Shown piece after piece: positions 1-16,719 of a DNA stretch of 32,000 nt (position 1 is the first letter of the stretch; every line of letters starts with the position of its first letter). The translations under genes were made by a program, and so were the position numbers. Below the pieces are notes generated by a model that had not been told where the DNA came from, ran no database searches, and saw only the letters and a program-made list of their open reading frames with translations. Source of the stretch: Candidatus Saccharimonadota bacterium (GTDB lineage Bacteria > Patescibacteriota > Patescibacteriia > 2-12-FULL-60-25); contig JALHOH010000001.1 of NCBI GenBank assembly GCA_022843095.1, positions 90,001 through 122,000 on the forward strand. The letters run 5' to 3'.

Positions 1-44
1 GCCGTGCAAGCTAACCGTTCGCAAGTTGTTTTCCTCTTTCGTAC

Positions 45-72
45 CGAGCGAGGTCGAGGAATATCTCGCTCG
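45..72 (-). other. Perfect 8-bp stem hairpin just downstream of the helicase stop; the loop contains TCGAGGAA
   Basis: CGAGCGAG (45-52) pairs with CTCGCTCG (65-72). No U-tract follows on the minus strand, so this is not a canonical intrinsic terminator. Confidence 0.5.
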
Positions 73-79
73 TGTGCGC

Positions 80-3000
80 TTAGCGTTTCTTCTTCATCGA
101 AGAAAGAAACGCTGTGACCGCATCCGCCGAAGCGGGTGCGGTCGAGTTCTTTGCCTCCGGCGCCGGCGCTTTTGGCGCGGGCGAGGGCGGAACGGGCTTC
201 GGCGCCGCTTTCGACGGCTCCGAAACCACGCTTACTTCCATCGGGATGATCTCACGACCATCCCGGTAGAAGATCACGGGGTAGATCATAGCGGGCTTCT
301 GGGTATCCCCATAAGCCCAGCCAATCGCCCACACCCCGTCGGTGAGCGTCGTGGGAAGGATCACCGTCCCCTCCCAGTTGACGTTCCCCTTCCAGGACAA
401 ATCACGGACGGTGATCCGAAGCCCTGGAACGGTTTCGATCCAGAAGCGTTCCTTTCGCCGCTCATCGAGCGACTCCAGGCGGGATTCGGCGGCGCCCTTC
501 GCGGGAAACACCTCGAACCCCTCGGCTTTTTTGCCGCTGCTTACGTAGACGCGGCCAGCGTCCACGAGCAGAAAGATCTGTCCTTGCGGAAGCGATTGGA
601 TCTTCTCCAAGATCGTGTCGCGTCGCGCAAAGGCCTCTTGCTGCGCCCTCGCCTCTTCGGCTTTCTTATCAGCCAAAGATTTGAGTGCCGCTACCGCCTC
701 GCCAAGAAGCGCATTGGCCTCCTGCGTCCAGGTCTGGAGGTCTTCCAGTCCGGACGGCAGGTACTCGTAACGCTTGCTGTCGACGCGCGAACGGAGGTCG
801 CCGTCCAGATCGTACCAACCCTCGCGGGACTGGACGCTCCGGAGCGACTCCTGCGCTGCCTCGGCCATGGCCTTGGTCTCGTCGAACTGCTTCTGCTTGA
901 TCGCCTCCTCGCGGATGCTCTCGAGCTTGGCAGCCGACTTCGCACGCGCGGCATTGGCCTCCTCGCGAACCTGGAACCACTTGCCCTCGAACCAGGGGTC
1001 CGAGGAGTAGTACCGGTAGTCCTTGAGGTCGACCGCGCCAAAGGCGACGAGTGACGTTCCGTCGATGACCGAGATGCCGTACCGGCATTCGATGATCTCC
1101 GGAACGACCGACGTCGGATCGGCGGGGTCCGGCAGCCCGATGGCCGGACGGCCTTCGGTCGGCCAGTTGTCCCAGAGGCACTTGTTCGCGCGGCTCACGC
1201 AGCGCGTCTTGAGCTCCGGGATGTCCCGGCCGCTGACGGTGTCGTAGTAGCCGAAGGGCACTACGACTTCCACCACGCGACCTCCCGGGAGCTTGACCCC
1301 CGCGTCCGGCAGCTCGCGCCAGCCGTGCGCGGTGATCGTGTCTCGATCGAGCGTAATCCGCGGGGTGTGACCCTCACGGTACTCGACCCGGAACGTCCGA
1401 CCGATCACCGTGATCTCGTCGGGGTTCTCGCCCATGACGAGCTCGACCAATTCCGCGTCGGGCGCGGGTGGCTCGAGCGCTGCAGGGTCAACGACCTCTG
1501 CCATTCGCCGAGCGCCACAAAGACACTTCTTCAGATAGGCGCCGACCTCCTCCGGACTCATCACCGTGAAGATCGTCTCGCCAGCACGCGTGTTGAGCGC
1601 GCGAGCTTCAGTCTGCGCGTAGCGCGGTTGTGCCGCGAGCCACGCGCAGAAGATGTTTGCCGCCTCGACGTGCTCGGGATCGGCGACCGCCTCCTCCTTG
1701 ATCTTCTGCCCGTTGAAGAACGTCTCGGTGGTCGAAACCACGGAGTCCTTCGCCGAGTCGAAGTACGGGCGGAGACCGGTCTTCCGCTCCACGAGCTGCG
1801 GGGCGACGTCGGCGAGCAGCTGCGGATCGACCGCCGTGGCCATCGAGACGAGGCGCAGGGTCACGAGACGACCCCGACGATCCTTGATCTGGATGTCCTT
1901 CGGTAGGCCGACGAGCCACTCGGGACCGCCGCGCACGACCGACTCACGCGCGAGCTCGCGCTCGACCGGCGAACCGTTGATGTACCGGCCGTACTGGCTC
2001 CGGTACAAATGATCCACCATGCCGGCGACACAGGCCTTCAGGATGGCCTGCCGCTCTTCCTCCTTCGAAGCGAACTTCTTGGAGTCGGAGCGAACCTCGC
2101 TGCGCGTCGCGTCCAGGAGCTTCCGGCGGAGTTCGTCCGCGCGGAAGAAATCCTTGACGAAGATGCCCGCCTCACGGAGGGCCTCCGCCTTGGACTGTCC
2201 GTTCCGACCCTTCATCTCCTTGCCCTTCTCGAACACGTCGAGGGTGGCGAGGAGGTCGGATTTGGACTCCTGGGTGAGCGACCGCCACTGGCCTTCGCGG
2301 CCGCGGATGTCGCCGGCCTCGAGGCATCCAGCGATGGTCGCCACCTGCTCGACCACGCCGTGACGCTCCGCCTCGATCAACATGCGAGCGTACTCGCACG
2401 AGACCGAGAAGCGCGCCATGCGACGGCCGATCTTGGTGACGTTCCCCTCGCCGGACATGGCACCGAGCGCCACGAGCGCGCGACGGGCGTCGACCAGCGT
2501 GTCCTTGTCCGGCTGGTGAAAGAACTCCAACGCCGTGGCATCAAAGCCTTGCACTGCCAGACGCAGAACCATCTGGTCGAGACGCGAACGGAGCACCTCG
2601 GCGAGCGGGAACGGGCGGCGATCGTTCATCCCGATGTCGGATGCCAGGACGTAAATCCCTGGCTTGGTCCGACCGGCGCGCCCGGCGCGCTGCGCGGCGT
2701 CGGCTTGGGAAATGGGCTTGAGGTAGAGTCCCTCGATCCCATCCGCCAGCTCGACACGCCTCTCGATCCCGCTGTCGACGACGGCGTCGATGTCGGGGAT
2801 GGTGACCGACGTCTGAGCGACGTTGGTGGCCACCACCACCTTCACCTTACCGTTCGGCGCGGGCGCGAACGCGCGCTGCTGATCGCCGGGCTCCATGTCG
2901 CCATGGAGCGGGAGGACGAGGGCAGTCGTCCCCAGCTGGGTTTCAAGAGCGGAGACGCTTTCGCTAATCTCCTTCTTACCCGGCTGGAAGACGAGGACGT

Positions 3001-3634
3001 TCCTCCCCTCCTTGGCGAGCTTCACCGCCTCGGCGATCAAATCGCGCGAGGAGGCCGCCCGCTTCTCGACGGGGAACAAACGCCCGGGGACCGAAATCAC
3101 CGGTACGCCCTCGCCATAGAAGGCGGACAGCTTCTCGGCCTCGAGCGTGGCACTCATGAGCACCACCTTGAGGTCGTCGCCAGCGCTGATGCGGGACTTC
3201 ACCCACGCCACGAGGACCTCGACGTTGAGGTTCCACTCGTGGACTTCGTCGAGGACGAGAACGGTCTTGCGACCCGTCCCGCCCTGACCGGCGAGCTCGC
3301 GGACGAGCTGCAACCCGTCCGTGACGAACAAGATCTCGGTTGCAGCCGAATCCGAACGCTCCTCGGCGGTCCGGAAGCCGACGCGGTCGCCCAACCGCGT
3401 TCCCATTTCCTGGGCCACGCGCTGGGCGAGCGCGCGGGCGGCGAGCCGACGGGGCTGGGTGCAGATCACCCGGTACCCGGCAGATGCGAGCATCTGCGGC
3501 ACCTGGGTGCTCTTACCAGCACCGGTCTCGGCGGTGATGATGGTCACCGCCGCCCCGCTCACAGTCTTCAGGATCTCATCCTTGAATCCGATCACGGGTA
3601 GGCTCGAACCGTTGCTACCGTTTCCATTCTTCAT
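80..3634 (-). CDS. DEAH/RHA-family (HrpA-like) ATP-dependent RNA helicase with ~600-aa uncharacterised C-terminal extension
   Basis: The translation carries the full motif set: GETGAGKSTQ (I), TQPRRLAA (Ia), DEVHE (II), SAT (III), TNVAQTSVTI (V), QRAGRAGR (VI). The track ORF runs to 3766, but I place the start at ATG 3634 (MKNGNG...), which is preceded by GGAGA 5 nt upstream. The C-terminal half has coiled-coil-like and Pro/Ala-rich segments with no motif I recognise. Confidence 0.9.
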   Translation of the reverse strand: MKNGNGSNGSSLPVIGFKDEILKTVSGAAVTIITAETGAGKSTQVPQMLASAGYRVICTQPRRLAARALAQRVAQEMGTRLGDRVGFRTAEERSDSAATEILFVTDGLQLVRELAGQGGTGRKTVLVLDEVHEWNLNVEVLVAWVKSRISAGDDLKVVLMSATLEAEKLSAFYGEGVPVISVPGRLFPVEKRAASSRDLIAEAVKLAKEGRNVLVFQPGKKEISESVSALETQLGTTALVLPLHGDMEPGDQQRAFAPAPNGKVKVVVATNVAQTSVTIPDIDAVVDSGIERRVELADGIEGLYLKPISQADAAQRAGRAGRTKPGIYVLASDIGMNDRRPFPLAEVLRSRLDQMVLRLAVQGFDATALEFFHQPDKDTLVDARRALVALGAMSGEGNVTKIGRRMARFSVSCEYARMLIEAERHGVVEQVATIAGCLEAGDIRGREGQWRSLTQESKSDLLATLDVFEKGKEMKGRNGQSKAEALREAGIFVKDFFRADELRRKLLDATRSEVRSDSKKFASKEEERQAILKACVAGMVDHLYRSQYGRYINGSPVERELARESVVRGGPEWLVGLPKDIQIKDRRGRLVTLRLVSMATAVDPQLLADVAPQLVERKTGLRPYFDSAKDSVVSTTETFFNGQKIKEEAVADPEHVEAANIFCAWLAAQPRYAQTEARALNTRAGETIFTVMSPEEVGAYLKKCLCGARRMAEVVDPAALEPPAPDAELVELVMGENPDEITVIGRTFRVEYREGHTPRITLDRDTITAHGWRELPDAGVKLPGGRVVEVVVPFGYYDTVSGRDIPELKTRCVSRANKCLWDNWPTEGRPAIGLPDPADPTSVVPEIIECRYGISVIDGTSLVAFGAVDLKDYRYYSSDPWFEGKWFQVREEANAARAKSAAKLESIREEAIKQKQFDETKAMAEAAQESLRSVQSREGWYDLDGDLRSRVDSKRYEYLPSGLEDLQTWTQEANALLGEAVAALKSLADKKAEEARAQQEAFARRDTILEKIQSLPQGQIFLLVDAGRVYVSSGKKAEGFEVFPAKGAAESRLESLDERRKERFWIETVPGLRITVRDLSWKGNVNWEGTVILPTTLTDGVWAIGWAYGDTQKPAMIYPVIFYRDGREIIPMEVSVVSEPSKAAPKPVPPSPAPKAPAPEAKNSTAPASADAVTAFLSSMKKKR

Positions 3635-3870
3635 GATGTCTCCTCGAGCCAGGGGTGCCTTGCGGCTATTCCCACCCTGCTCGGCCAGCTTTTCAAGGCT
3701 GACTTCCTTTCGGCTTTTTGGCCTACAGGCATGCGGGCAGGGAGGCCCGGGAGTTCTATCACTCACGTAGACAGAAACACGTCTCTCTCCTCGAGAGAAG
3801 AAAATCGAGACCGACTCTCTTCTCGCGACGAAATCCTCAATCCGAGGCCGAACCCTGCGTTCGACATCAA

Positions 3871-3923
3871 ATCGAGGAACCCACCATCGCTTGTGCAGGG
3901 CGTTGGTGGGTCTTCGAGTGCAG
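3871..3923. repeat. Intergenic hairpin motif, copy A
   Basis: atcgaggaa, then stem cccaccatcgc (3880-3890), loop ttGTGCAgg, stem gcgttggtggg (3900-3910), then tcttcgagtgcag. The stem has 10 of 11 positions paired. Confidence 0.7.
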
Positions 3924-4202
3924 TGGTTACGCCACTATCCGGCTCGTACACGAGCGTGTCCCGGGGATCAGTCGGGATTGTTCGGCTGGGGATCGCGTTT
4001 CCAGCCGTTTGGGCTCTGATGCTTTGTCGGGGGATGCCTCCGACTCGTCATCTCAAGGGGAGCCCTTGGCAGAAATGTTGCGTAGTCCGCTATGGACACG
4101 CGCATCTGCCGCTCTCCAACTCCGGTTACATCATCTTCTCGACGATGTGGAGCTGTCCCGGTTCACGCCGGTGCGTTTTGCGGCATCCGCTATGCGAGCG
4201 AC

Positions 4203-4709
4203 TCAGCCGACCTTCGCCCACTCGAGACCGAGCTCGAGAGCCTTCGCCGCAGACACCTTGGTGCCGTGCGGAAAGTCTCTCGTCTCAATCCGAGAGGGCA
4301 TGATCGGCTCGCCGGGGAAGAAGGTCCAAACGACCTCCTTCCCGCTCGCGCGGTCGGGTCCGAGGAGGAGGACAGTGAAGTCCACCTCCGGACCGAGGAC
4401 TCCCTCGACCACCGCCTCCACGTTTCCCGTGGACTTGGGGTCAGAGAGGGTCACCTCCGTCTGCGGAACAAGTTCCACGAGACGAAGGAGACCGAATCGC
4501 CCTCGGATCGGAGCCCGAAACCCGCACGCCGACGACGAAATCGCCGGATGCGAGTACTCCTCCCACGCCACGCTCTGAAGATCTTTCAGAGTCGTAGCAG
4601 CGAGGAACCGCGAGCCTGCACCACCGCCCGGCTGACGCTGCGCAAGGCAGCTAGCCAGGTACGATGGATCGGTCGCGGCGAATGCCGCCAGAATGCGCTC
4701 GTGCGTCAT
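4203..4709 (-). CDS. Hypothetical protein (168 aa), no recognisable motif
   Basis: The ORF is on the same strand as its neighbours and its composition is protein-like. It has an ATG start and no strong SD. The plus-strand ORFs that overlap it look like high-GC artefacts. Confidence 0.6.
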   Translation of the reverse strand: MTHERILAAFAATDPSYLASCLAQRQPGGGAGSRFLAATTLKDLQSVAWEEYSHPAISSSACGFRAPIRGRFGLLRLVELVPQTEVTLSDPKSTGNVEAVVEGVLGPEVDFTVLLLGPDRASGKEVVWTFFPGEPIMPSRIETRDFPHGTKVSAAKALELGLEWAKVG

Positions 4710-4885
4710 TCTGGTTTCTTGCGCTGTATATTCTCCGAGCTTCCCCGGATATTCTTAGCGCAAGCCATTCAAGGCCACTTCACTTCGTTTTGTCATTGGC
4801 ACCATGCCGCAGATCAAAACGAAGTTCATCGCTCCTCGATGCGACATCCCATTATTCCTCCCCGGAGGAACGAATGAGATGGCAG

Positions 4886-4936
4886 ATCAAGGATCCCACC
4901 GCAGCCGTGCAAGCGCTGGTGGGTCTTCGAGTGCAG
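4886..4936. repeat. Intergenic hairpin motif, copy B
   Basis: atcaaggat, then cccac-cg-cagc, loop cGTGCAagc, gctg-gtggg, then tcttcgagtgcag. The 3' flank tcttcgagtgcagt is identical to copy A. It starts about 9 nt after the NTase stop codon. Confidence 0.7.
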
Positions 4937-4944
4937 TTGTAGGC

Positions 4945-5457
4945 TCACTTCACGAGGCCACCAGCGATTGCTCGCCGCTCGACCTCGGATCGCGTTTCCG
5001 ACTTGAAGGCTTTGTAGGCCTTCTTGTCGGAGCGAAGTTCCAGCTTGCGCCGACGGACTTCCGCAAGCTCGTTCTCGGTCAGAACGAGCCGATAGAACCG
5101 CGCCCAACCCACGTAAGCGCGATTCCTGAGACACCCCTCGACGTCGAGAGGAAGGACGAGCTCGGGGTGGTTGAGCTTGCCCTCGATCATGACCCCTTGG
5201 CTTTCACCGTGGGGCCAGTCGCCGACCGGAATCACCTTGCGAAAGGCGAGACCGGTGACCTGTTCGATCCGAGAGCGCAGCGACTCGCTCATCGGATTTT
5301 CGGTGAGGAAGCGGACATCGACGTCGATGCAGTCCGCGCCCTCCAGGATAAACAGACCGGAAATGAGGGATCCTCCGAGGATCACCTCGACCTCCGTGCC
5401 CAGCGCATCCTGCCACTGAGCCATGAGACCTTCGACGACCTTGAGGATTTGATCCAC
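4945..5457 (-). CDS. Minimal Pol-beta-superfamily nucleotidyltransferase (170 aa)
   Basis: ILGGSLISGLFILEGADCIDVDVRF matches the hG[GS]-x(9-13)-DxD pattern. A third acidic strand follows at LPLDVEG. The start is GTG at 5457, preceded by AAGGAGG 5 nt upstream. Confidence 0.75.
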   Translation of the reverse strand: MDQILKVVEGLMAQWQDALGTEVEVILGGSLISGLFILEGADCIDVDVRFLTENPMSESLRSRIEQVTGLAFRKVIPVGDWPHGESQGVMIEGKLNHPELVLPLDVEGCLRNRAYVGWARFYRLVLTENELAEVRRRKLELRSDKKAYKAFKSETRSEVERRAIAGGLVK

Positions 5458-5528
5458 GGCCGCCTCCTTCTTTGAATTTTTTTATCGCAGAATGTTTTTC
5501 AAGGAGCTGCGATATCTCCTTTGGCAGA

Positions 5529-6110
5529 CTACTCCCCGCGGTTTGCCATTCCTGCGAGAATCTCGGCGAGCGCCTTGATGGTCGGACGATCTGCGACCGG
5601 TTCGCCGCGCTCCAAATGGTGCACGGATCCCCTGTGGACGCCATCCTCACCGAGCTGAGGGACGTCGTCCGTCTGGCCGTGGTAGTCGCTGTGGATCTCG
5701 GCCAGAACCTTGATCCCCAACTTCTCGCAGAACGCCCTCCACTCCGGAAAGCGGCTCACGTCCCCTGCGAGAAGGACGGCGTGAGTGGCGGTCGAGCAGA
5801 TCTGCTCGTTCTCCGCCGAAGGAATCCCGCCAATGTCTACCACGACCAGCGGGAGCGCAACTTTCTTCACCGAATCCGTTATGCGCTTCACGAACTCGGG
5901 GGTGAACTTCGACTTGTAGGCGGCCTTGAGTTCAGCCGCCGTCTGGGGATCGACGTTCACCGTCTCCTGGAACCACGCGCCCTCCCCATCGGGGCACGCG
6001 GTGATCACGTACGGATACGGCGCGCCAGGAATGCGCCGCACCGCGTCCTTTAAGCCCTGCCTCATGCAGGACTTCCCCGAACGCGGGGGACCGCAGAGTA
6101 CGACTTTCAT
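5529..6110 (-). CDS. Small P-loop NTPase (193 aa)
   Basis: Walker A is GPPRSGKS and Walker B is LPLVVVDIGG. I chose ATG 6110 (MKVVLCG...) because a strong AAGGAGG lies upstream. The 12 nt upstream of the start (ggccgcctcctt on the plus strand, 6111-6122) are identical to those upstream of the NTase gene (5458-5469). Confidence 0.8.
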   Translation of the reverse strand: MKVVLCGPPRSGKSCMRQGLKDAVRRIPGAPYPYVITACPDGEGAWFQETVNVDPQTAAELKAAYKSKFTPEFVKRITDSVKKVALPLVVVDIGGIPSAENEQICSTATHAVLLAGDVSRFPEWRAFCEKLGIKVLAEIHSDYHGQTDDVPQLGEDGVHRGSVHHLERGEPVADRPTIKALAEILAGMANRGE

Positions 6111-6219
6111 GGCCGCCTCCTTGTGAGGAACTATCCACGTACTGCTTCTCGGAATATCCGAGATTATCAGTAGCGATTTCCTTCCTCGATTGAAGCTCCG
6201 ATCCATGATCAGAAGTTCG

Positions 6220-6270
6220 ATCGAGGACCCCACATAGCTTTTGTGCAAAAGCGACATGGGGCTCGAGTGC
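6220..6270. repeat. Intergenic hairpin motif, copy D
   Basis: atcgaggac, then outer stem cccca/tgggg, inner stem gctttt/aaaagc, GTGC at the loop apex, then ctcgagtgc. Confidence 0.65.
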
Positions 6271-6366
6271 TTGCCAGAAGCCGTCTGGCAACGGACCCGT
6301 CGTTTTCTAGAGCCGGGATTTCGCTCAAACTCGGAGATCAATCCGAGGAATTTCTGCAAAGGGTGA

Positions 6367-6705
6367 TCAGCCCTCGAGCACCTCCGCCGCCGGGATCAGG
6401 GATCCGACCGTCCGCTCGGGGTCGTGCGACACCGCGACGACGTAGGCCGCCATCTTCGGATCGAAGCAGGCGACCGCACCGAAGCGGTGGGCCACGGCGT
6501 GCCCGATCGCGATCGCGACGGGGAGCGAGGCGGGGCCGTTGAGGAGGCAGAGCTTGCCCCCCTCGAGACCCAACGCCTCGACGCTGGCGACCGCGTCCTT
6601 GACGATCGCATCGTTCTGCGCGGGAGCGCCGAACGAGAGCGTGAGAAGGCAGGCGGGGACGGAGGCAACGGTGCGGGCGGCGAACTTCACGTTGTAGGTC
6701 GTCAT
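6367..6705 (-). CDS. Csx3/Crn3-like protein (112 aa), putative cyclic-oligoadenylate ring nuclease / RNA deadenylase fold
   Basis: Start is ATG 6705 (MTTYNVKF...) with AAGGAGA upstream. The segment LLNGPASLPVAIAIGHAVAHRFGAVACFDPKMAAYVVAVSHD resembles, from my memory of Archaeoglobus Csx3, the core ...GRGPIWL..AH....VAVYDPRLGAVVVQSHS. The size of ~100 aa fits the family. The coding call is firmer than the family call. Confidence 0.6.
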   Translation of the reverse strand: MTTYNVKFAARTVASVPACLLTLSFGAPAQNDAIVKDAVASVEALGLEGGKLCLLNGPASLPVAIAIGHAVAHRFGAVACFDPKMAAYVVAVSHDPERTVGSLIPAAEVLEG

Positions 6706-7153
6706 GATGGTTTTTCTCCTTTTGGGGAGATGGGGCGAACTTGTGAGAGAACCGTAACTCTCACTCCCGTTATTTTGTCGCTTAGCCCGATACGTCGGAG
6801 CCACGTTCATATCTCTTCCCCACCTCTCGATGGAGCTATCGACCCTGGATACCCGGGCCGGAGGGTATTCGGGATGCATTCGGATTGCCGACGTTCTTCA
6901 CGCGGCTACGAACACATCCCACGGCACCTTCACCGTTGTTCATCCCGCACAGGCATCATCCTCTCCTCGAGGTCATGTCTGTGCATGTGAGCGCCATCGG
7001 CAGGAGTCGCACCTGCTCGCATCCCTGGAACCCGTCTGAGGGGCCGCGCATCTCGCGCGCTTCTGTTGTCCAGGCGATGGCACGTTCGGGTTTCCCCGAT
7101 CTGAAGCCCTGACGTAAGCCCCGCAATAGATGATGTGGGTGTCAGGAATTCGG

Positions 7154-7190
7154 ATCGGATGCCAACGTGTGCATGTTGGCTCCGAGTGCA
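7154..7190. repeat. Intergenic hairpin motif, copy C (short-stem variant)
   Basis: atcggat, then stem gccaac, loop gtGTGCAt, stem gttggc, then tccgagtgca. After that, tttgtaggct parallels copy B gttgtaggct. The stem sequence differs from A and B but still pairs, which is covariation. Confidence 0.65.
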
Positions 7191-7267
7191 TTTGTAGGCT
7201 TCCCCCACTCCCTCTTGCGAGGACTACGGTGTGGTTTTTGTACGGGTAGCCACGCCCGGGATGGTGG

Positions 7268-7687
7268 TCAGTTCGTGTAGAACGTCGTGGACCTGCCCAT
7301 CCAGCAGACCACCACCTGGCGACCGTTGCGCCGCACCACCGCGCTCTTCGGGAGGCTGTTCGACTTGAATGCCTCCTTCAAAGCTTCGGTCGCGAGCGCC
7401 TGCTCGCCCTTCTTCTCGTCCGCTGCCTTCACCGCTGCTACGCGCGCAGCCTCCTTCTGCCGCGATGCCTTGTGACATGAGCGACAGACCTTGGCGTTCG
7501 GTACGGCGGATGGAGCGATGAACTTCGCACCGCAGGCACAGGTGATCACAGGGCGGGCGTTGGCGTTGGTGTTGGTGTTCACTTTTTTCTCCGCTGGTTT
7601 CTCTAGCCAGCGGCCTTTTGTGGCGTCATGGTCCAGCGAAATTGCTGGAGGACATGGCGCCCGACGGAACAGGACGAATTCCTTCAT
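7268..7687 (-). CDS. Hypothetical zinc-ribbon-like protein (139 aa)
   Basis: CxC...CxxC arrangement in VITCACGAKF...KVCRSCH, followed by a Lys/Ala-rich helix. There is no clear SD, and high GC makes spurious ORFs likely, so confidence is moderate. Confidence 0.45.
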   Translation of the reverse strand: MKEFVLFRRAPCPPAISLDHDATKGRWLEKPAEKKVNTNTNANARPVITCACGAKFIAPSAVPNAKVCRSCHKASRQKEAARVAAVKAADEKKGEQALATEALKEAFKSNSLPKSAVVRRNGRQVVVCWMGRSTTFYTN

Positions 7688-8039
7688 CCGTTTTCGTCGT
7701 TTAGTTGTCGAAGAGCGTGGGAGGAACCCCCGTTCCTTCCCTCATCGCGTGTAGTAGCGACTGCAGGATGTTCGACCCTTGGAAGGGTCCAACTCCCGCG
7801 CACTCGTTACTACGAATCCTCTCTGTAGGATTCGAGAGCCACCACGATCTGTTTGCCGTACCGCGATGTAACTCGCGGTTTTGGTATGCCGTCCGTGGCC
7901 TCTCCGATATCAGTTCGGAGCAGTTCAGAGATGTGGCTGATTGCCTTAGGGCAGGATCTCTCTCCTTGGTGATCGCGCGAGGGCGACCATCATCCCCTAA
8001 AACCATCAGCATCACAGAAGTGAAAAGGTGCGTTTTGCC

Positions 8040-8094
8040 AAAAAGCGGCAAAGATCGAGGATCCACTGTGGAGAGAATCATCGATCTTTGCCGC
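8040..8094 (-). terminator. Strong hairpin terminator (14-bp perfect inverted repeat plus T5) reading on the minus strand
   Basis: gcggcaaagatcga (8045-8058) pairs with tcgatctttgccgc (8081-8094). The 22-nt loop has an internal tcca/tgga pairing. On the minus strand the hairpin is followed by TTTTTGG. Confidence 0.65.
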
Positions 8095-8097
8095 TAT

Positions 8098-8212
8098 CTA
8101 GTAGGATGTCGTACTCGGCTCTCTCTTTCCGAGGACGACGGGCTGTTGGAGTTCAAGGTTCGTAACCGGCTCTGTTTCTTCTGGCTCGTTCCGGTCTTTC
8201 ATCTTCACAACA
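8098..8212 (-). CDS. Candidate 34-codon small ORF (MKDRNEPEETEPVTNLELQQPVVLGKREPSTTSY), or a non-coding small RNA
   Basis: It sits exactly between a near-consensus promoter and the 14-bp hairpin terminator. The TAG stop lies 3 nt before the hairpin. There is no SD and the leader is about 6 nt. It is below the length cutoff of the ORF track. Confidence 0.35.
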
Positions 8213-8224
8213 GTATCATACCAT

Positions 8225-8253
8225 GTCTTTCAATTTTTGTCAAGCGTACGTAG
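8225..8253 (-). promoter_or_regulatory. Sigma70-type promoter: TTGACA, 17 nt, TATGAT, with TGg extended -10
   Basis: The reverse complement reads cgcTTGACAaaaattgaaagacatggTATGATactgttgtgaagATG. Confidence 0.6.
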
Positions 8254-8301
8254 TCATTTTTCTAGTTTTTATCTATTTTTAGTATATTTTTTGTATAGTT
8301 T

Positions 8302-8330
8302 TTGTCAGAATAATTTTGGCATGGTATACT
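8302..8330 (+). promoter_or_regulatory. Sigma70-type promoter: TTGTCA, 17 nt, TATACT, with TGg extended -10; predicts a leaderless mRNA
   Basis: TTGTCA at 8302-8307 and TATACT at 8325-8330. The ATG at 8337 lies 7 nt after the -10, at the expected transcription start site. Confidence 0.6.
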
Positions 8331-8336
8331 AATCTT

Positions 8337-9167
8337 ATGAAAAACACCTCTCAAAACCACACGCATCCCGCCACCCCCCTTCTGCAAGAACTCGGCCTCC
8401 ATGAGCAGGAGGCGGCTCTCTATCTCCTCTTATTGACCCAAGGACCCCAAAAAGCGCGGGATCTGACGGCCGCGATCGGGATTGGACGTGGAAATGTCTA
8501 TAACTATCTGATGATGCTCGTGCAAAAGGGGCTCGTTTCCGCGATTGAGGGCAAGCAAACACGGTATGAAGCGGCGGATCCGGCGAAATTGGAACAACTG
8601 TTGGCGCAAAAGAAGCAGGGAATTTCCCATTTGGAAGGGATGTTTCAGCAACTTCTTCCGACACTGACCTCCGCGTTCAACCTTTCTACCGGAAAACCGA
8701 CCGTCCAGGTGTATGAGGGGGTGGATGGATACAAACTCGCGCTTCAGGATGTCCTGACCAGCAAAACAGATATTTTGACCTATATTGATGCCGACGCGCT
8801 CACGGGTCCGCTCGCAACGATCGACGCCTGGTTTACGAAAGAACGTGAACGCCGTGGCATTCGCCAACGCATCCTTGTGGCGGACACTCCGGGGTTACGA
8901 CAGGCGTTTTCTGAAAAGACCGCAGGGGTTGAGGTTCGGTTCCTTAAAAACTTCGCCAATGCCTATCGGGGGGCCATGGAACTCTACGATCACCGCATCG
9001 CGTACTTCTCGCTGACCGCTGGAAAATCCATCGCCTTTATCATTCAGGAGCAGACGATGTACGAGCTACACCGTCAGCAATTTGAGTTTCTTTGGACGAC
9101 CGCATCTCCGCAGACGATGACAGAGGAACCGACGCCTGCTGTTCCGGCTCAAAAACGATATACCTAA
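8337..9167 (+). CDS. TrmB-family transcriptional regulator
   Basis: The N-terminal winged HTH (LGLHEQEAALYLLLLTQGPQKARDLTAAIGIGRGNVYNYLMMLVQKGLVSAIEGKQTRYEAADP) follows the typical TrmB pattern, and a C-terminal effector-like domain follows. The track start at 8316 is TTG; I prefer ATG 8337. Confidence 0.8.
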   Translation: MKNTSQNHTHPATPLLQELGLHEQEAALYLLLLTQGPQKARDLTAAIGIGRGNVYNYLMMLVQKGLVSAIEGKQTRYEAADPAKLEQLLAQKKQGISHLEGMFQQLLPTLTSAFNLSTGKPTVQVYEGVDGYKLALQDVLTSKTDILTYIDADALTGPLATIDAWFTKERERRGIRQRILVADTPGLRQAFSEKTAGVEVRFLKNFANAYRGAMELYDHRIAYFSLTAGKSIAFIIQEQTMYELHRQQFEFLWTTASPQTMTEEPTPAVPAQKRYT

Positions 9168-12108: not shown

Positions 12109-12115
12109 TCTCTGT

Positions 12116-12231
12116 CCGGCGGCGGGCTACTCTTCCAGGACCGGGTTGGGTCCAAGTACCATCGCTGCTAGAGGGCTTAACGACCGTGTTCGGGATGGGA
12201 ACGGGTGTGACCCCTCTGCTTGGGCCACCGG
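12116..12231 (-). rRNA. rrf: 5S rRNA (116 nt)
   Basis: The reverse complement contains CCCGTTCCCATCCCGAACACGG, GTTAAGCC and GATGGTACTTGG. The terminal helix pairs CCGGUGGC with GCCGCCGG. Confidence 0.9.
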
Positions 12232-12649
12232 TCTTGATGCACAGCATTCTGCGCCCCAAGATCGACAGCCCAACCGTGTGAATCCGAATGTTGTATGTGC
12301 AAGGCAGGACACATCCCACTTGCGTTTGACCGTGTCACAAGGACACTTTGGCGTATTGCTCGCCATCCGATCTGGATGGCCGAAGCATCGGACGATTAGT
12401 ATGGCTCGGCTAAAGGCCTCACGGCCCGTACACCTACCACCTATCAACCTCCTGGTCTCGGAGGGTCCTAAACGAAGACTAATCTTGAAGACGGCTTCAC
12501 GCTTAGATGCTTTCAGCGTTTATCCGTGCCGAGCGGTAGCTACCCTGCGGTGCCCTTGGTAGGACAGCAGGCGCACTAGAGGCTCGTGATTCCCGGTCCT
12601 CTCGTACTAAGGAATCGCCTTCTCAATCTTCCACGCGCACAGTAGACAG

Positions 12650-12745
<96 letters not shown>

Positions 12746-13309
12746 CGATGGGCCGACATCGAGGTGCCAAACCTGGTCGTCGCTGTGGACGCTCGGACCA
12801 GATCAGCCTGTTATCCCCGGAGTAGCTTTTATCCGTTGAGCTTCCGCCGTCCGATATCGTACGGTCGGATCACTATGTCCTGCTTTCGCATCTGCTCGAC
12901 TTGTTGGTCTTGCAGTGAAGCCGGCTTATCCCATTGCGGAATCGGCGCGATTTCCATCCGCGCCTAGCCGACCTTTGTGAACGCCTCCGTTACCATTTGG
13001 GAGGCAACCGCCCCAGTTAAACTACCCACCAGATCCTGTCTCCCAAGCCGGATTCACGGCTCGAGATTAGAGTAACGAAAGGGGAAGGGTGGTGTCTCAT
13101 CGGCGCCTTGCGGCTCCCACCTACACTGAACATCCCAATCCGGTACCCAAGATCAAGTTGTAGTAAAGCTTCACGGGGTCTTTTCGTCTGACTGCGCGTA
13201 CAGGGCATCTTCACCCCACTTGCAATTTCACCGAGTCCCACGTTGAGACAGTCGCAAACTCGTTATGCCATTCGTGCGGGACGGAACTCACCCGTCAAGG
13301 AATTTCGCT

Positions 13310-13556
13310 CTTCGTTTCCTTTCTGACGAAGGACCATCTCTTCATCCATGTTTCCATGGAGCATGACGTATGGCCTCTGAGGGATCCGACGAATCGGACT
13401 TCCCTGCTGATATTTCCGTAGCGAGTAACTCTACGGCTCTTCCCAGCAAATAGTCATGTATGTTTTAGGACCAGTTCTGTATTGCTACAAAACGAGGCAG
13501 CTCTTCCATCCATAATCGTCCCAGTCCTTCGCCAACCCTTCGAAAAGAGTCGGCGA
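13310..13556 (-). ncRNA. Group-I-like intron (247 nt, no ORF) inserted after the E. coli U1931 equivalent of 23S rRNA
   Basis: It interrupts the universally conserved CCUAAGGU|AGCGAAAUUCC. The upstream exon ends in U and the insert ends in G. The insert has R/S-like core elements: CUCAGAGGCCAUA and AAGAGAUGGUCC form a 6-bp P7, and a CCAUG-GAAA-CAUGG hairpin (P8) lies between them. There is also a UCCGA-UUCG-UCGGA hairpin. An IGS-like tract pairs with the upstream exon, including a U-1/G wobble. Confidence 0.75.
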
Positions 13557-14392
13557 ACCTTAGGACGATTATAGTTATCGCCGGCGTTCATCAGCGCTTA
13601 GATTCAAGGCTGCCGGGTTACCCCATGACCTCTCCTCGTGACGTTCTGACACTGGCCAGGCATCACTCCCTATACCTCACCTTGCGGTTTCGCAGGGAGC
13701 TGTGTTTTTGGTAAACAGTCGGTTTGCGTCTTTCGCTGCGGCCCAGCTTGCGCTGGGCAGGCCTTATCCCTAGGTTACGGCCGTTGTATTGCCGAGTTCC
13801 TAAACGCGGGTTCTCTCGTACACCTTGGCACACGTATGCCCACTCACCTGTGTCGGTTTCCGGTACGGTTTCCATGTGCTTAGCCCTAGAAGCTTTTCTC
13901 GGCACCGCAGTCCCAACCCTTGCTCCCCTTTCGGGAAACTCGCGATCGCCCCGAGGCTTATGACCGGCGGATTTGCCTACCAGTCACCCCTGAGCGCCCA
14001 AAGGTTCAATCCAAGAACCTCGATCAGTTGAACGATGCGTCACTCCATCGGAAACACACGGAAGTGCAGGAATATTAACCTGCTGGCCATCGGCTACGCA
14101 TTTCTGCCTCGCCTTAGGACCGACTAACCCAGGGACGATTCTCGTAGCCCTGGAAACCTTGAGTTTATGGTGGACAGGATTCTCACCTGTCTTTTTGCTA
14201 CTTATGCCGACATTCTCACTTCTCTCCGCTCCACGGTGGCTCACGCCTTCCGCTTCAGCGCAAAGAGAACGCTCCCCTACCAGTACATGATTCCGAAGAA
14301 TCATCGTAATCCGCGACTTCGGTACCGCCCTTAAGCCCCGGTAAGTTTTCGGTGCCGAGCAGCTTGACCAGTGAGCTGTTACGCTTTCTTTA

Positions 14393-14430
<38 letters not shown>

Positions 14431-15005
14431 AGCCGCCCGACCTCCTTTGACACTGAGGACGGATTTAGGGACCTTAATCTGCGGTCAAGGGCTGTTTCCC
14501 TTTTGTCCATTGGAGCTTAGCCCCCAAGGACTGACTGCTGGGAACACACACACGGCATTCGGAGTTTGGTTAGAAACTGTAAGCTTGCGCCCCAGTTCCC
14601 ATTCAGTGCTCTACCTCCGCGGTGTTATGGACCAGCGCTAGACCAAAATCTATTTCGGGGAGAACCAGCTATCACCCATCTCGATTGGAATTTCACCGCT
14701 ATCCACACCTCATCCCCGAGTGTCGCACGGCTCGTGGGTTCGGACCTCCATCCACCTTTCGGTGGACTTCATCCTGGGCATGGATAGATCGACGGGTTTC
14801 GGGTCTTGTGGATGCTACGAACGCCCTATTCAGGCTCGCTTTCACTATGGCTTCGCCCCCGCAGGGACTTAACCGAGCAACATCCAGCAAACTCGTCGGC
14901 TCATTCTTCAATAGGAACGCTGTGACGGACTTGCGCCCGCTCCAGCTCTCTTGTAAGCGTACGGTTTCAGATACTGTTTCATCGCCCTCCCGGGCTACTT
15001 TTAAG

Positions 15006-15038
<33 letters not shown>

Positions 15039-15339
15039 GTCAGCGTATTTAGCCTTGGCACATCGTCGTGCCTGCTTCCGGCGGGGTTTCTCGGGCCCCG
15101 TCGTACTATGGATCACACACAGGATGAGACGTCATCTTTCGTCTACCGGGCTATCACCGTCTTTGGCCCCGCTTTCCATCGGGTTCAACTAGAATCATCT
15201 TCTTTCCTTGCTGCACTTGGGAGCAGCATGTTTGTGTCCCTACAACCCCCCTATGACGAAAGCCCAAGCTCGCCCTCCTGCCCGCGGTAAAACTTGCGTC
15301 CTACTCGGTGCAAAAGTTGATCATAAAGGTTTTGGCTCG

Positions 15340-15370
<31 letters not shown>

Positions 15371-15429
15371 ATGCAGGCTTCTTGTCTCGCCCTGACCATT
15401 GCTGATCAAGAGAGACAAGAAGTCTGCGT
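15371..15429 (-). other. ~55-nt expansion hairpin in 23S domain I
   Basis: A 16-bp stem pairs gcaggcttcttgtctc (15373-15388) with gagacaagaagtctgc (15412-15427) with one non-Watson-Crick position. It lies between the conserved GAAACAUCUnAGUA and AGUAGCGGCGAGCGAA blocks, where E. coli has only a few nucleotides. Confidence 0.7.
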
Positions 15430-16075
15430 CGTTTTTCTCTTTTCCTCTAGGTACTGAGATGTTTCACTTCCCTAGGTTCCCTCCTGCCACCTATGTATTC
15501 AGTGGTTCAGGTCTGCAGAGTTCATCTGCAGGGGTTTCCCCATTCGGACATCTCCGGATCAAAGGTTGCTTGCCACCTCCCCGAAGCTTATCGCAGGCTG
15601 CTACGTCCTTCATCGGCGCTGTACTGCCTAGCCATCCACCGTACGCCCTTACGTGCTTCGACCATCCAGATCCTGATCCTGAAGATCAGCACCGGTTGGT
15701 TCGAGCCACCAAGGTGTCTTTGTGTACGTTACATTATTGCAAGTAGATGTGCATGCCTTGCACATACTACATTCTGATTCTCTGAAGATCTTTTCAGACC
15801 TTCAAAAGTTTACTCTGCAATTTTCGATGATCGACCCATCCCGTTTTCTGCCCAAGTGGCAGTGGTCGTGAGATGAGCAAAGAAGAACGTCGAGGTGCCT
15901 CGGCACTCTTCTTTGCGAATCTCTCTTTAGAACAAAAGGACTTGGCTACATGCCAAGTCGGAACTGGAGGTTCCTGCCCTGGCCATTCTCCTCACTTTGA
16001 ATGTGGCGGTGATCTCCATTGCTTCTCTTCGGCCAACCCGCCGGGGAGAAGGTGGTGCTCTCAATTTGTGCCCGC

Positions 16076-16239: not shown

Positions 16240-16719
16240 ATGGAACAGCATCAATTCTTTCTCCGCGCGATCGGTGAACCGCATGCGGACTGGCAAGTCG
16301 AGGCGTTGCAGGACTATCTGCTGCGCCTAAAGCCATTTGCAAAGGTGGATGTACGTATTCTGCGCGAGGGTCATCAAGGTTCTTCGACCCCAAATATCGA
16401 GACGGCACGCAAAACCGAAGCGGATGCGCTGCTCGCGTCGCTCCCGAAAGGTGGAACGATCATTGCCCTGGATGAAACCGGAAGGAACTTCACCAGCCTT
16501 CAGTTTGCGCAAAAACTCCGTACCTGGACGGACGGCGGTGCGCCGGTCACCTTTTTACTCGGAGGATCTTGGGGCCTTGATCCGACCGTACGATCGCAGG
16601 CACACGCGACCATTGCGCTAGGCGCACACACACTCCCCCACATTCTCGCGCGGATCGTCCTCCTTGAACAACTCTACCGCGCAGAAACCATCCTGCGTGG
16701 AAAGACGTATCATAAGTAG
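16240..16719 (+). CDS. rlmH: 23S rRNA (pseudouridine1915-N3)-methyltransferase RlmH (SPOUT family)
   Basis: 159 aa and collinear with E. coli RlmH as I recall it: LDxxG, LLIGG/LLGGSWGL, the HxLxRxxLxEQLYRA block and a C-terminal YHK. Confidence 0.9.
   Translation: MEQHQFFLRAIGEPHADWQVEALQDYLLRLKPFAKVDVRILREGHQGSSTPNIETARKTEADALLASLPKGGTIIALDETGRNFTSLQFAQKLRTWTDGGAPVTFLLGGSWGLDPTVRSQAHATIALGAHTLPHILARIVLLEQLYRAETILRGKTYHK

Follow-up and report, generated by a model that had tools for sequence, protein, structure and literature searches.

What role does a ring-nuclease-type domain play where no Cas10 exists? This concrete question is raised by a stretch of 32,000 nucleotides (nt) from a Candidatus Saccharimonadota bacterium, which was analysed as a whole and is here called the window; the survey of the source genome covers these 32 kb. 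Five open reading frames (ORFs), all on the - strand as the initial annotation of this DNA had described, lie between positions 80 and 6705 and encode a Csx3/Crn3-like protein, a P-loop NTPase, a small nucleotidyltransferase (nt170), an uncharacterised protein (u168) and a giant DEAH helicase. The initial annotation treated the five as one cluster. The comparison of related loci presented here yields a different picture: the Csx3 and NTPase genes form a widespread pair that aligns with a known type III CRISPR accessory protein, nt170 and the helicase are attached to this pair in a minority of loci, and u168 is variable cargo.

Csx3 and the P-loop NTPase as two halves of one protein

The Csx3/Crn3-like gene (6367..6705, - strand) encodes 112 residues and the NTPase gene (5529..6110, - strand) 193 residues, and profile searches place both products on a single model of the PADLOC database. 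Of the 286 positions of the Csx3-AAA model (PDLC01045), the 112-residue protein covers 12-102 with E 4.8e-15 and the NTPase 108-285 with E 1.3e-57; further PADLOC matches are to the model 'Csx3 (CARF)' for the former (E 3.7e-12) and to PDLC01059 (AAA-Csx3) for the latter (E 1.6e-35). Judged by these alignments, the two genes are the N-terminal half and the 'AAA' half of the fused type III accessory protein Csx3-AAA, split here into two polypeptides, with a stop codon and 256 nt between the genes. Csx3-AAA and AAA-Csx3 were described as type III accessory families (clusters 35 and 67) by Shah et al. 2019 (PMC6546367), and Synechocystis Slr7080 is an example of a Csx3-AAA-type protein (PMC9676260). 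The function of Csx3-AAA is unknown in the literature too, and reviews name the ATPase half 'AAA+ of unknown function' (PMC12409355, PMC8284326). The Csx3-NTPase core is of an already known kind, and the gene combination, taken as undescribed in the initial annotation, is not wholly unknown.

Csx3 is a divergent member of its family: The PADLOC Csx3 models align to residues 20-108 of the 112-residue protein. The Pfam model PF09620 (Cas_csx3) passes its gathering score of 21 just narrowly, with 22.8 bits (E 8.6e-5), and aligns to no more than the C-terminal half of the protein; the Csx3-like assignment made in the initial annotation is upheld by these matches. The equivalog cut-off of NCBIfam TIGR02579 is missed (22.5 vs 55.4 bits), and for this reason the protein is assigned, by profile, to a divergent subfamily of Csx3/Crn3. 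A profile built from 13 Csx3 relatives has Archaeoglobus fulgidus Csx3 (AfCsx3) as its top PDB match (6yud, 3wzg, 6vjg and 3wzi; E 0.006-0.011). The AfCsx3 residues with catalytic and ligand roles (G45, H57, H60, D69, R71 and H80; PMC7371418) could be mapped onto the window protein, with G45 corresponding to G57, H57 to H69, H60/H61 to H73, D69 to D82, R71 to K84 and H80 to H94. Among 79 unique relatives the mapped positions are 96-100% conserved, including near-invariant H69, H73, D82, K84 and H94; because of this conservation of the catalytic-site equivalents, the domain appears to be under selection as an enzyme, and its residue set is compatible with activity, though not canonical.

The NTPase resembles a GTPase-class switch: The AlphaFold2 (AF2) model of the NTPase (pLDDT 89.7) was compared with the PDB by Foldseek. 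The best matches are GPN-loop GTPases (7zhk, 5hci, 1yr6), followed by SRP54/FtsY, MinD/Soj/ParA, Get3 and small kinases, with probability ~1 and TM-scores of 0.4-0.6; no AAA+ entry is found among the top 50 matches, and Pfam AAA does not match the protein. Its motifs are a Walker A (GPPRSGKS) near the N terminus, a PDGEG loop that is invariant and follows strand 2, and a Walker B of the form hhhhDIGG. As modelled, the protein is probably a kinase-GTPase-class switch with a SIMIBI/GPN-loop-like fold, not an AAA+ protein, and its appearance is that of a GTPase/ATPase switch that dimerises, not of an AAA+ motor. An earlier suggestion that it is kinase-like finds loose support, with small kinases ranking next after the GPN-loop, MinD and SRP NTPases that match best. 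PDB searches with single sequences of the four small proteins gave no match, and PDB profile searches with nt170, the NTPase and u168 gave nothing useful.

The pair is widespread and mostly free of CRISPR

The NTPase family comprises 1088 homologue clusters; nearly all members of the best 120 of these are stand-alone proteins of ~190-200 residues. The organisms named for the listed homologues are Magasanikbacteria, 'Patescibacteria group' or plain 'bacterium', and the named homologues together with related metagenome-assembled genomes (MAGs) are mostly Patescibacteria. The pair is common in ultrasmall (Patescibacteria-type) bacteria. A metagenome scan through the NTPase recovered 80 loci; related loci, through whichever gene they were found, are given L numbers below. 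In 78 of the 80, Csx3 and the NTPase are encoded by separate, immediately neighbouring genes whose order varies, and the other two are truncated contigs. Fused Csx3/NTPase paralogues are found in L013, L034/35 and L045. The helicase is present in 8 of the 80 loci and nt170 in 5. The pair alone is the widespread unit of the island, and a single conserved five-gene operon was rejected on these co-occurrence counts.

CRISPR arrays were sought in 98 sequences (945 kb), which include flanks of up to 8-10 kb on each side of the pair. No array was found in the flanks of 76 of 77 non-redundant loci. The sole locus with one is L083 (1-14210). It is a CRISPR-Cas locus of type III (III-A/D-like) that encodes two Csm3/Cas7 proteins, a CARF-RelE effector, a membrane protein and a reverse transcriptase-Cas1 (RT-Cas1) and has an 8-repeat array at 13101-13640. 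A split NTPase and Csx3 pair sits within this locus (5629-6523), and because of that position the pair family is seen to retain an evolutionary link to type III signalling. In the window, there is no array in the 32 kb and no Cas family among the 20 other ORFs scanned with Pfam, as the initial annotation had observed. A Pfam census of the 148 nearest-neighbour ORFs in the 77 non-redundant loci counted TrmB 12 times, DEAD/Helicase_C 7 times and MoxR 5-6 times; no Cas family was matched by at least two of these ORFs. CRISPR-Cas has been reported as rare in Patescibacteria, or candidate phyla radiation (PMC4742961, PMC6509639), and no paper naming both Csx3 and Patescibacteria was found in the paper library searched.

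A bpMoxR-type AAA+ ATPase (PF20030) recurs 1.7-7 kb 3' of the NTPase gene, together with small conserved ORFs, in L024, L025, L033, L035, L036, L042, L046, L053, L054, L057, L082, L090 and L094. A von Willebrand factor A (vWA) protein comes after bpMoxR in most of these loci (8 in the clustering, plus probable partial ORFs). Clusters 2 and 3 of this ORF clustering consist of antisense ORFs called in GC-rich loci and were left out. The bpMoxR-vWA genes constitute a second accessory set, alternative to the arm formed by nt170 and the helicase. MoxR and vWA are recognised by profile; putative PIN-like genes, identified by reading of the sequence, also recur near the pair.

nt170 is a minimal nucleotidyltransferase tied to the pair by fusions in relatives

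The nt170 gene (4945..5457, - strand, GTG start) encodes a 170-residue member of the Pol-beta superfamily of nucleotidyltransferases (NTases). Its homologues fall into 28 clusters, all of ~170 residues and none with a Pfam domain, in which L27-G-G-S-L-x-S33, D45-x-D47-x-R-F and E92 are invariant and E107 nearly so; the catalytic signature that the initial annotation had read from the single sequence is a property of the whole family. The AF2 model (pLDDT 94) adopts a fold of the Pol-beta NTase type, and its Foldseek matches are Pol mu/lambda/beta, Cid1, TUT1/TUT7, the CCA-adding enzyme and CutA (probability 0.9-1.0, TM-score 0.3-0.45), with viral poly(A)/tRNA NTases as weak fold matches. None of cGAS, OAS and DncV is among the top 50, and there is no sequence-level match to Pfam NTP_transf_2, the profile named initially for this protein, or to PolyA_pol. 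On the strength of the model, nt170 is taken as a Pol-beta-fold nucleotidyltransferase that founds a small, new and rare family.

When loci are selected through nt170, its tie to the pair becomes apparent. The NTPase is present in 13 of the 14 non-redundant loci so obtained and Csx3 in 12 (one contig being truncated), with variable gene order and several different flanking contexts. In L014, nt170 is fused to the DEAH helicase in a protein of 786 residues; in L015 and L016, the NTPase is fused to nt170; and in L013, a fused AAA-Csx3 gene lies 430 nt 5' of nt170. The clustering proposed in the initial annotation is thereby upheld for Csx3, the NTPase, nt170 and the helicase. Loci with nt170 are scattered over the NTPase tree, including its deepest branches, and therefore the association is either old and often lost or repeatedly re-formed.

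Two loci in this sample have peculiarities of their own. L015 has two Csx3 genes (3109-3456 and 5850-6158); the one adjoining the NTPase-nt170 fusion is without the conserved histidines, with TNSLASS and SSD instead of AHxxxH and SHD, and the other retains them. L017 (2-14110), from a GC-rich MAG labelled Burkholderiales, contains a 4702-residue ORF that combines ddrB-ParB, an nt170 domain, an Eco57I-like methylase and an SNF2 helicase. Polyvalent proteins of phages and conjugative elements typically have giant multi-domain architectures of this sort.

The helicase is a fusion of two genes

The last gene of the island encodes a protein of 1184 residues. Residues 1-650 (1685..3634, - strand) are a DEAH(DEVH)/RHA helicase core of HrpA/HrpB-like type, with DEAD, Helicase_C, HA2_N and HA2_C found by Pfam between residues 24 and 467. 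The NCBIfam models TIGR01970 (HrpB, E 1.2e-89) and TIGR01967 (HrpA, E 5.7e-86) align to residues 11-653; the scores lie below the equivalog cut-offs for both (302 vs 546 bits and 289 vs 723 bits, respectively). No match was found in the protein to OB_NTP_bind, one of the profiles named in the initial annotation, or to DUF3418. By its profile scores, the helicase is of the DEAH/RHA type and is the orthologue of neither HrpA nor HrpB.

The C-terminal 534 residues (80..1684, - strand) have no Pfam match, and the initial impression of a long C-terminal part without recognisable motifs is borne out. Homologues of this module are stand-alone proteins of 340-595 residues, also without a Pfam domain, and in relatives it is a gene of its own, downstream of the helicase. 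In L098, a 671-residue helicase gene is followed by a separate gene for the 592-residue P0150, which is 77% identical to the C-terminal segment of the window protein over segment residues 16-329. Because the C-terminal part is a separate gene in L098, the window protein is an in-frame fusion of two adjacent genes; helicase and module are also fused in L008. A homologous helicase gene comes after the pair or the NTase in L002, L003, L006, L008, L012, L014, L026, L049, L074, L075 and L077, and the helicase occurs with the pair and without nt170 in L075, L077, L079 and L022.

u168 is variable cargo

The u168 gene (4203..4709, - strand, 168 residues) is without homologues in all of the related loci, where the position 3' of nt170 and before the helicase is taken by different genes from locus to locus. 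u168 is variable cargo, not a conserved part of the island. The protein has no Pfam, PADLOC, PHROG or PDB match; it is a real protein all the same and belongs to a large uncharacterised family that elsewhere comprises 477 representative clusters at E<=1e-3, with the motifs QRxPG..GS, HP, PKGTG and TFHPGxPIxPS. In L100 (6001-6543), a u168 homologue lies beside genes for a PolyA_pol-family NTase, Methyltransf_32, HD and NUDIX proteins. The u168 domain occurs within giant proteins, one of which, P0207 (3049 residues), also carries a PolyA_pol_RNAbd region. These contexts offer a thin hint that u168 is possibly an NTase-associated accessory. Proteins of ~170 residues that other loci have at this position (cluster 10) were considered as remote relatives of u168 and were rejected at an hhalign probability of 1.2%.

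An island under probable TrmB control

The region 1-8000 has a G+C content (GC) of 0.59-0.67 and the remaining window one of 0.50-0.60; because of this jump, the composition suggests an acquired island, and horizontal acquisition is probable. Four of the five ORFs have Shine-Dalgarno sites 6-9 nt 5' of the start codon, in agreement with the initial reading: AAAGGAGA with a 9 nt spacer ahead of the Csx3 ATG at 6705, AAGGAGG ahead of the NTPase ATG at 6110, AAGGAGG ahead of the nt170 GTG at 5457 and GAGGAGA ahead of the helicase ATG at 3634. Inspection of the sequence upstream of u168 revealed no such site.

TrmB as a candidate repressor: A TrmB-family helix-turn-helix regulator (8316..9167, + strand; PF01978, E 6.4e-17) is encoded divergently to the island. 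TrmB is the most frequent neighbour family of the pair in the census, with phmmer matches in more than 20 loci, and L015 and L016 have a TrmB gene within the module. Between the regulator and the island lies a promoter-like divergent region (8204..8341). It contains a - strand match, TTGACA-17-TATGAT with TG (8243-8215), and a + strand match, TTGTCA-17-TATACT (8302-8330); these are consensus matches only, and the sole sigma-70-like ones in 1-8400. A 22-nt inverted repeat (8204-8225 / 8320-8341) brackets both sites and is a candidate operator. From this arrangement, TrmB is probably the regulator (repressor) of the whole island. A hairpin with strong 24-nt arms is predicted at 8044-8095, in the leader of the island transcript.

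A repeated hairpin element: A hairpin with two tiers, GCAC-UCGRAG-(free stem-loop)-UCCGA/UCGAU, occurs in three intergenic copies on the gene strand of the window. Copy 1 (7138..7192, - strand; GCAC-UCGGAG-(stem-loop)-UCCGA, z -3.25) lies 3' of a putative gene, p139; copy 2 (4878..4937, - strand; z -2.0) directly 3' of the nt170 stop codon; and copy 3 (3862..3924, - strand; z -3.1) inside the 568-nt gap before the helicase gene. A pattern scan located related hairpins in L009 (6116-6178), L098 (4701-4752 and 5685-5736) and L037 (~1094-1135), and the element is confined to the window island and its closest relatives. The inner stems are wholly different in sequence, yet always pair, and the fold z-scores range from -2.0 to -3.4. 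The element has no U-tract and no Rfam match; the Rfam scan of 1-8400 returned no match at E<=1.

Mobility: Related islands carry traces of movement. In L098, island GC is 0.59-0.66 in a background of 0.46-0.55, only a fragment of the NTPase gene is left and an integrase fragment lies at the island edge; this is a decaying mobile island. L003 is flanked by integrase, DNA methylase and BrnT genes, and L015 is adjoined by a putative serine-recombinase-like gene, read from its translation. Searches for relatives of the NTPase and of nt170 in 2.9 million IMG/VR viral contigs found none. No PHROG match is significant (the single match has E 0.78), a phage origin of the island was rejected for want of PHROG support, and the islands read were not seen to adjoin any conjugation genes.

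A proposed conflict module and its alternatives

Our leading, if tentative, reading is that of a TrmB-regulated mobile conflict (defence-type) module that would act on RNA 3' ends or oligoadenylates. What favours a conflict role is the island setting, the patchy distribution, the type III ancestry and the neighbouring MoxR-vWA, PIN-like and integrase genes. Of the readings offered initially, that of a defence-type nucleotide/RNA module is the favoured one. The core of the module is a CRISPR-orphaned, two-gene Csx3-AAA, in which a Csx3/Crn3 domain with its metal and phosphodiesterase residues kept is combined with a probable NTPase switch of the dimerising type, and the sub-lineage of the window has gained an RNA-acting arm consisting of nt170 and the HrpA-like DEAH helicase. 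Domain identities, linkage and fusions are observed; the chemistry that we propose would comprise four steps: RNA would be engaged by the helicase; nt170, coupled to the helicase or to the NTPase, would add adenylate-rich oligonucleotides at 3' ends or make them from such ends; a tetra-adenylate, be it cyclic A4 (cA4) or an A-rich 3' end, would be bound by Csx3 dimers and cleaved with Mn2+; and the nucleotide state of the NTPase, coupled to Csx3 occupancy, would set the output or limit the signal. A bolder version of this scheme is a CRISPR-independent oligoadenylate pathway in bacteria of Patescibacteria type, in which the helicase-coupled nt170 would take the place of Cas10 as an RNA-triggered signal generator, the pair would be both receiver and off-switch, and the very common orphan pair would be the mark of an unrecognised nucleotide- or RNA-based immune or regulatory system in lineages where CRISPR is reported to be nearly absent; we consider this version unlikely.

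Several observations weigh against a conflict module of this kind. Many neighbours of the pair in the census are ordinary housekeeping genes. The presence of nt170 in just 5 of the 80 NTPase-selected loci means that the pair cannot depend on it. The Foldseek TM-scores of nt170 and the NTPase are modest (0.3-0.6). nt170 has no match at E<=1 to PADLOC models, those for CD-NTases included, and across the island proteins PADLOC matches only Csx3 models and, weakly, helicase ones. In the Csx3 active site, R71 of AfCsx3 is an invariant K, the S44/R46 positions are N/P, and H73 aligns to H61, not to H60, with HxxxH spacing vs HxxH. Finally, the gaps between the five genes are long (256, 71, 235 and 568 nt) and contain hairpins, and hence a single operon is no more than a candidate arrangement.

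How much of the evidence could be met by a pathway with no conflict role? Housekeeping or stress-related surveillance and repair of RNA 3' ends, in a TRAMP-like manner, would have nt170 tail RNAs and the helicase unwind them, with Csx3 trimming the tails as a Mn-dependent deadenylase and the NTPase in a regulatory part. In its favour, nt170 comes closest in fold to terminal uridylyl/adenylyl transferases, Pol X and CCA-adding enzymes, the helicase resembles the RNA helicases HrpA/HrpB, and the two are fused in L014; the activity originally reported for Csx3 was that of a 3' poly(A) exoribonuclease (PMC8284326); u168 relatives neighbour a PolyA_pol NTase in L100 and share a polypeptide with PolyA_pol_RNAbd in P0207; and housekeeping genes are numerous around the pair. 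This account is, however, at odds with the patchy distribution and the rarity of nt170 (~28 clusters), with GC-anomalous islands that have integrases or recombinases and a decaying copy in L098, and with the pair in the type III locus L083 and the nt170 domain in a polyvalent-type giant protein. We regard it as rather improbable.

The homology of the pair to Csx3-AAA type III accessory proteins (PMC6546367) and the split pair inside the type III locus of L083 could also mean that the window encodes an ordinary ancillary ring nuclease, acting in trans with a type III locus elsewhere in the genome, the NTase and helicase being unrelated or secondary; the span of source genome read, 32 kb, leaves room for such a locus. 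Yet 76 of the 77 non-redundant loci are without an array in their flanks, the 148 neighbour ORFs include no Cas family with at least two matches, the homologues come mostly from Patescibacteria, where CRISPR-Cas is reported as rare (PMC4742961, PMC6509639), and the fusions of nt170 with the NTPase and with the helicase speak against unrelated neighbours. This explanation is unlikely, and slightly more so than surveillance of RNA ends.

A similarly doubtful alternative is a counter-defence cassette of an integrative or conjugative element, whose Csx3 would destroy the cA4 that the type III CRISPR system of a recipient produces, in the manner of AcrIII-1, and whose NTase and helicase would neutralise other defences based on RNA or nucleotides. 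The conserved catalytic residues of Csx3, the island features with their recombinases, and the presence of the nt170 domain in the giant protein of L017 and of the u168 domain in giant proteins are all consistent with it. Against it stand the 2.9 million IMG/VR contigs without NTPase or nt170 relatives and the lack of PHROG matches, and a phage-borne anti-CRISPR gains no support from them; in addition, chromosomal settings are common for the pair, in lineages that seldom have type III CRISPR, it is host-encoded in the type III locus of L083, and no conjugation genes adjoin the islands read.

Chance juxtaposition of the five genes is highly improbable, being suggested by the lack of u168 homologues in related loci and the varying content of the slot between NTase and helicase, and refuted for Csx3, the NTPase, nt170 and the helicase, though not for u168, by the adjacency of Csx3 and NTPase in 78 of 80 loci, the presence of the pair near nt170, in several flanking contexts, in 13 of the 14 loci selected through nt170, and three independent fusions (L014, L015 and L016).

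Other features of the window

The putative ORF p139 (7268-7687, - strand, 139 residues) lies between the TrmB and Csx3 genes and has a CxC...CxxC zinc-ribbon-like motif; no counterpart turns up in related loci, nor any significant family match. Outside the island, the window contains 23S and 5S rRNA genes, two tRNA genes and ordinary genes, which Pfam identifies, besides the TrmB regulator, as those for a GNAT-containing protein, a SulP/STAS permease, Band 7, an ABC transporter, UvrA, a pseudouridine synthase, a SPOUT methyltransferase, a rhodanese and DsbA. The 23S rRNA gene (12376-15663, - strand) measures 3288 nt against a 2925-nt model, which corresponds to ~360 nt of insertions. The 5S rRNA gene (12114-12232, - strand) comes after the 23S gene, and no 16S gene adjoins them. 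The SPOUT methyltransferase gene (16240-16719) is near the 23S rRNA gene, and a + strand ORF inside the latter (14622-15290) has no Pfam match.

Meaning and comparison with known systems

Csx3-AAA is an orphan problem of type III CRISPR biology that now becomes testable. The pair is far commoner outside CRISPR loci than inside them, with 1088 NTPase clusters mostly from ultrasmall bacteria, and gene fusions link it to natural partners, namely a new minimal NTase and an RNA helicase. The split, CRISPR-orphaned and abundant form of the pair in Patescibacteria-type genomes appears to be undescribed. The same applies to the predicted NTPase fold outside AAA+, to nt170 and u168 as protein families, and to the fusions that join nt170 to NTPase or helicase. 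Should the NTase make the ligand of Csx3, a new Cas10-independent signalling route would follow; should it not, Csx3 would have a second function, at RNA ends.

CBASS and OAS-RNase L logic: The island joins a Pol-beta NTase with a domain type known to bind and cleave oligoadenylate, and its island context is also shared with these systems. It differs from CBASS in that nt170 has neither a CD-NTase match in PADLOC nor a fold match to cGAS, OAS or DncV, no killing effector is recognisable in the island, and most loci with the pair are without the NTase.

TRAMP and terminal nucleotidyltransferases: TRAMP-type systems pair a non-canonical poly(A)/(U) polymerase with a DExH RNA helicase, and the NTase-helicase fusion of L014, in which nt170 is joined to a DEAH helicase, recalls Trf4-Mtr4. 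nt170 shares the Pol-beta core with GS and DxD with the terminal NTases (Cid1, TUT1/7, CutA and CCA-adding enzymes), which are its nearest structural matches as modelled. It differs from them in its length of only 170 residues, without a poly(A) polymerase-associated (PAP-associated) or central domain, in the missing Pfam NTP_transf_2/PolyA_pol match and in TM-scores of only 0.3-0.45.

HrpA and HrpB: The window helicase has their motifs and their HA2 winged-helix and ratchet domains, but it scores far below the equivalog cut-offs, lacks OB_NTP_bind/DUF3418 and carries an unrelated module in its C-terminal 534 residues.

Ring nucleases: The viral enzymes AcrIII-1/Crn2 differ in that they are carried by viruses or plasmids and are defined by DUF1874, to which Pfam finds no match among the island proteins. 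A. fulgidus Crn3/Csx3 (AF_1864; PDB 3WZI, 6YUD; PMC7371418) is the top PDB match of the window family profile and of comparable size (~110 residues), and the window protein has equivalents of its G45, H57, D69 and H80 and a histidine beside H60. The similarity, compared by sequence, is weak (E 0.006) and restricted to the C-terminal half, and the window protein is not CRISPR-linked.

Csx3-AAA and AAA-Csx3: Compared with these fused proteins, the window has two separate genes 256 nt apart; neither the window nor the surroundings of 76 of 77 related loci contain CRISPR-Cas; the carriers are for the most part of Patescibacteria type, not cyanobacteria; an NTase and a helicase have joined the pair; and the 'AAA' half models as a GPN-loop/MinD/SRP-like NTPase instead of an AAA+ protein. 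Nevertheless, both halves are homologous to the window pair, and a relative of that pair resides in the type III locus of L083.

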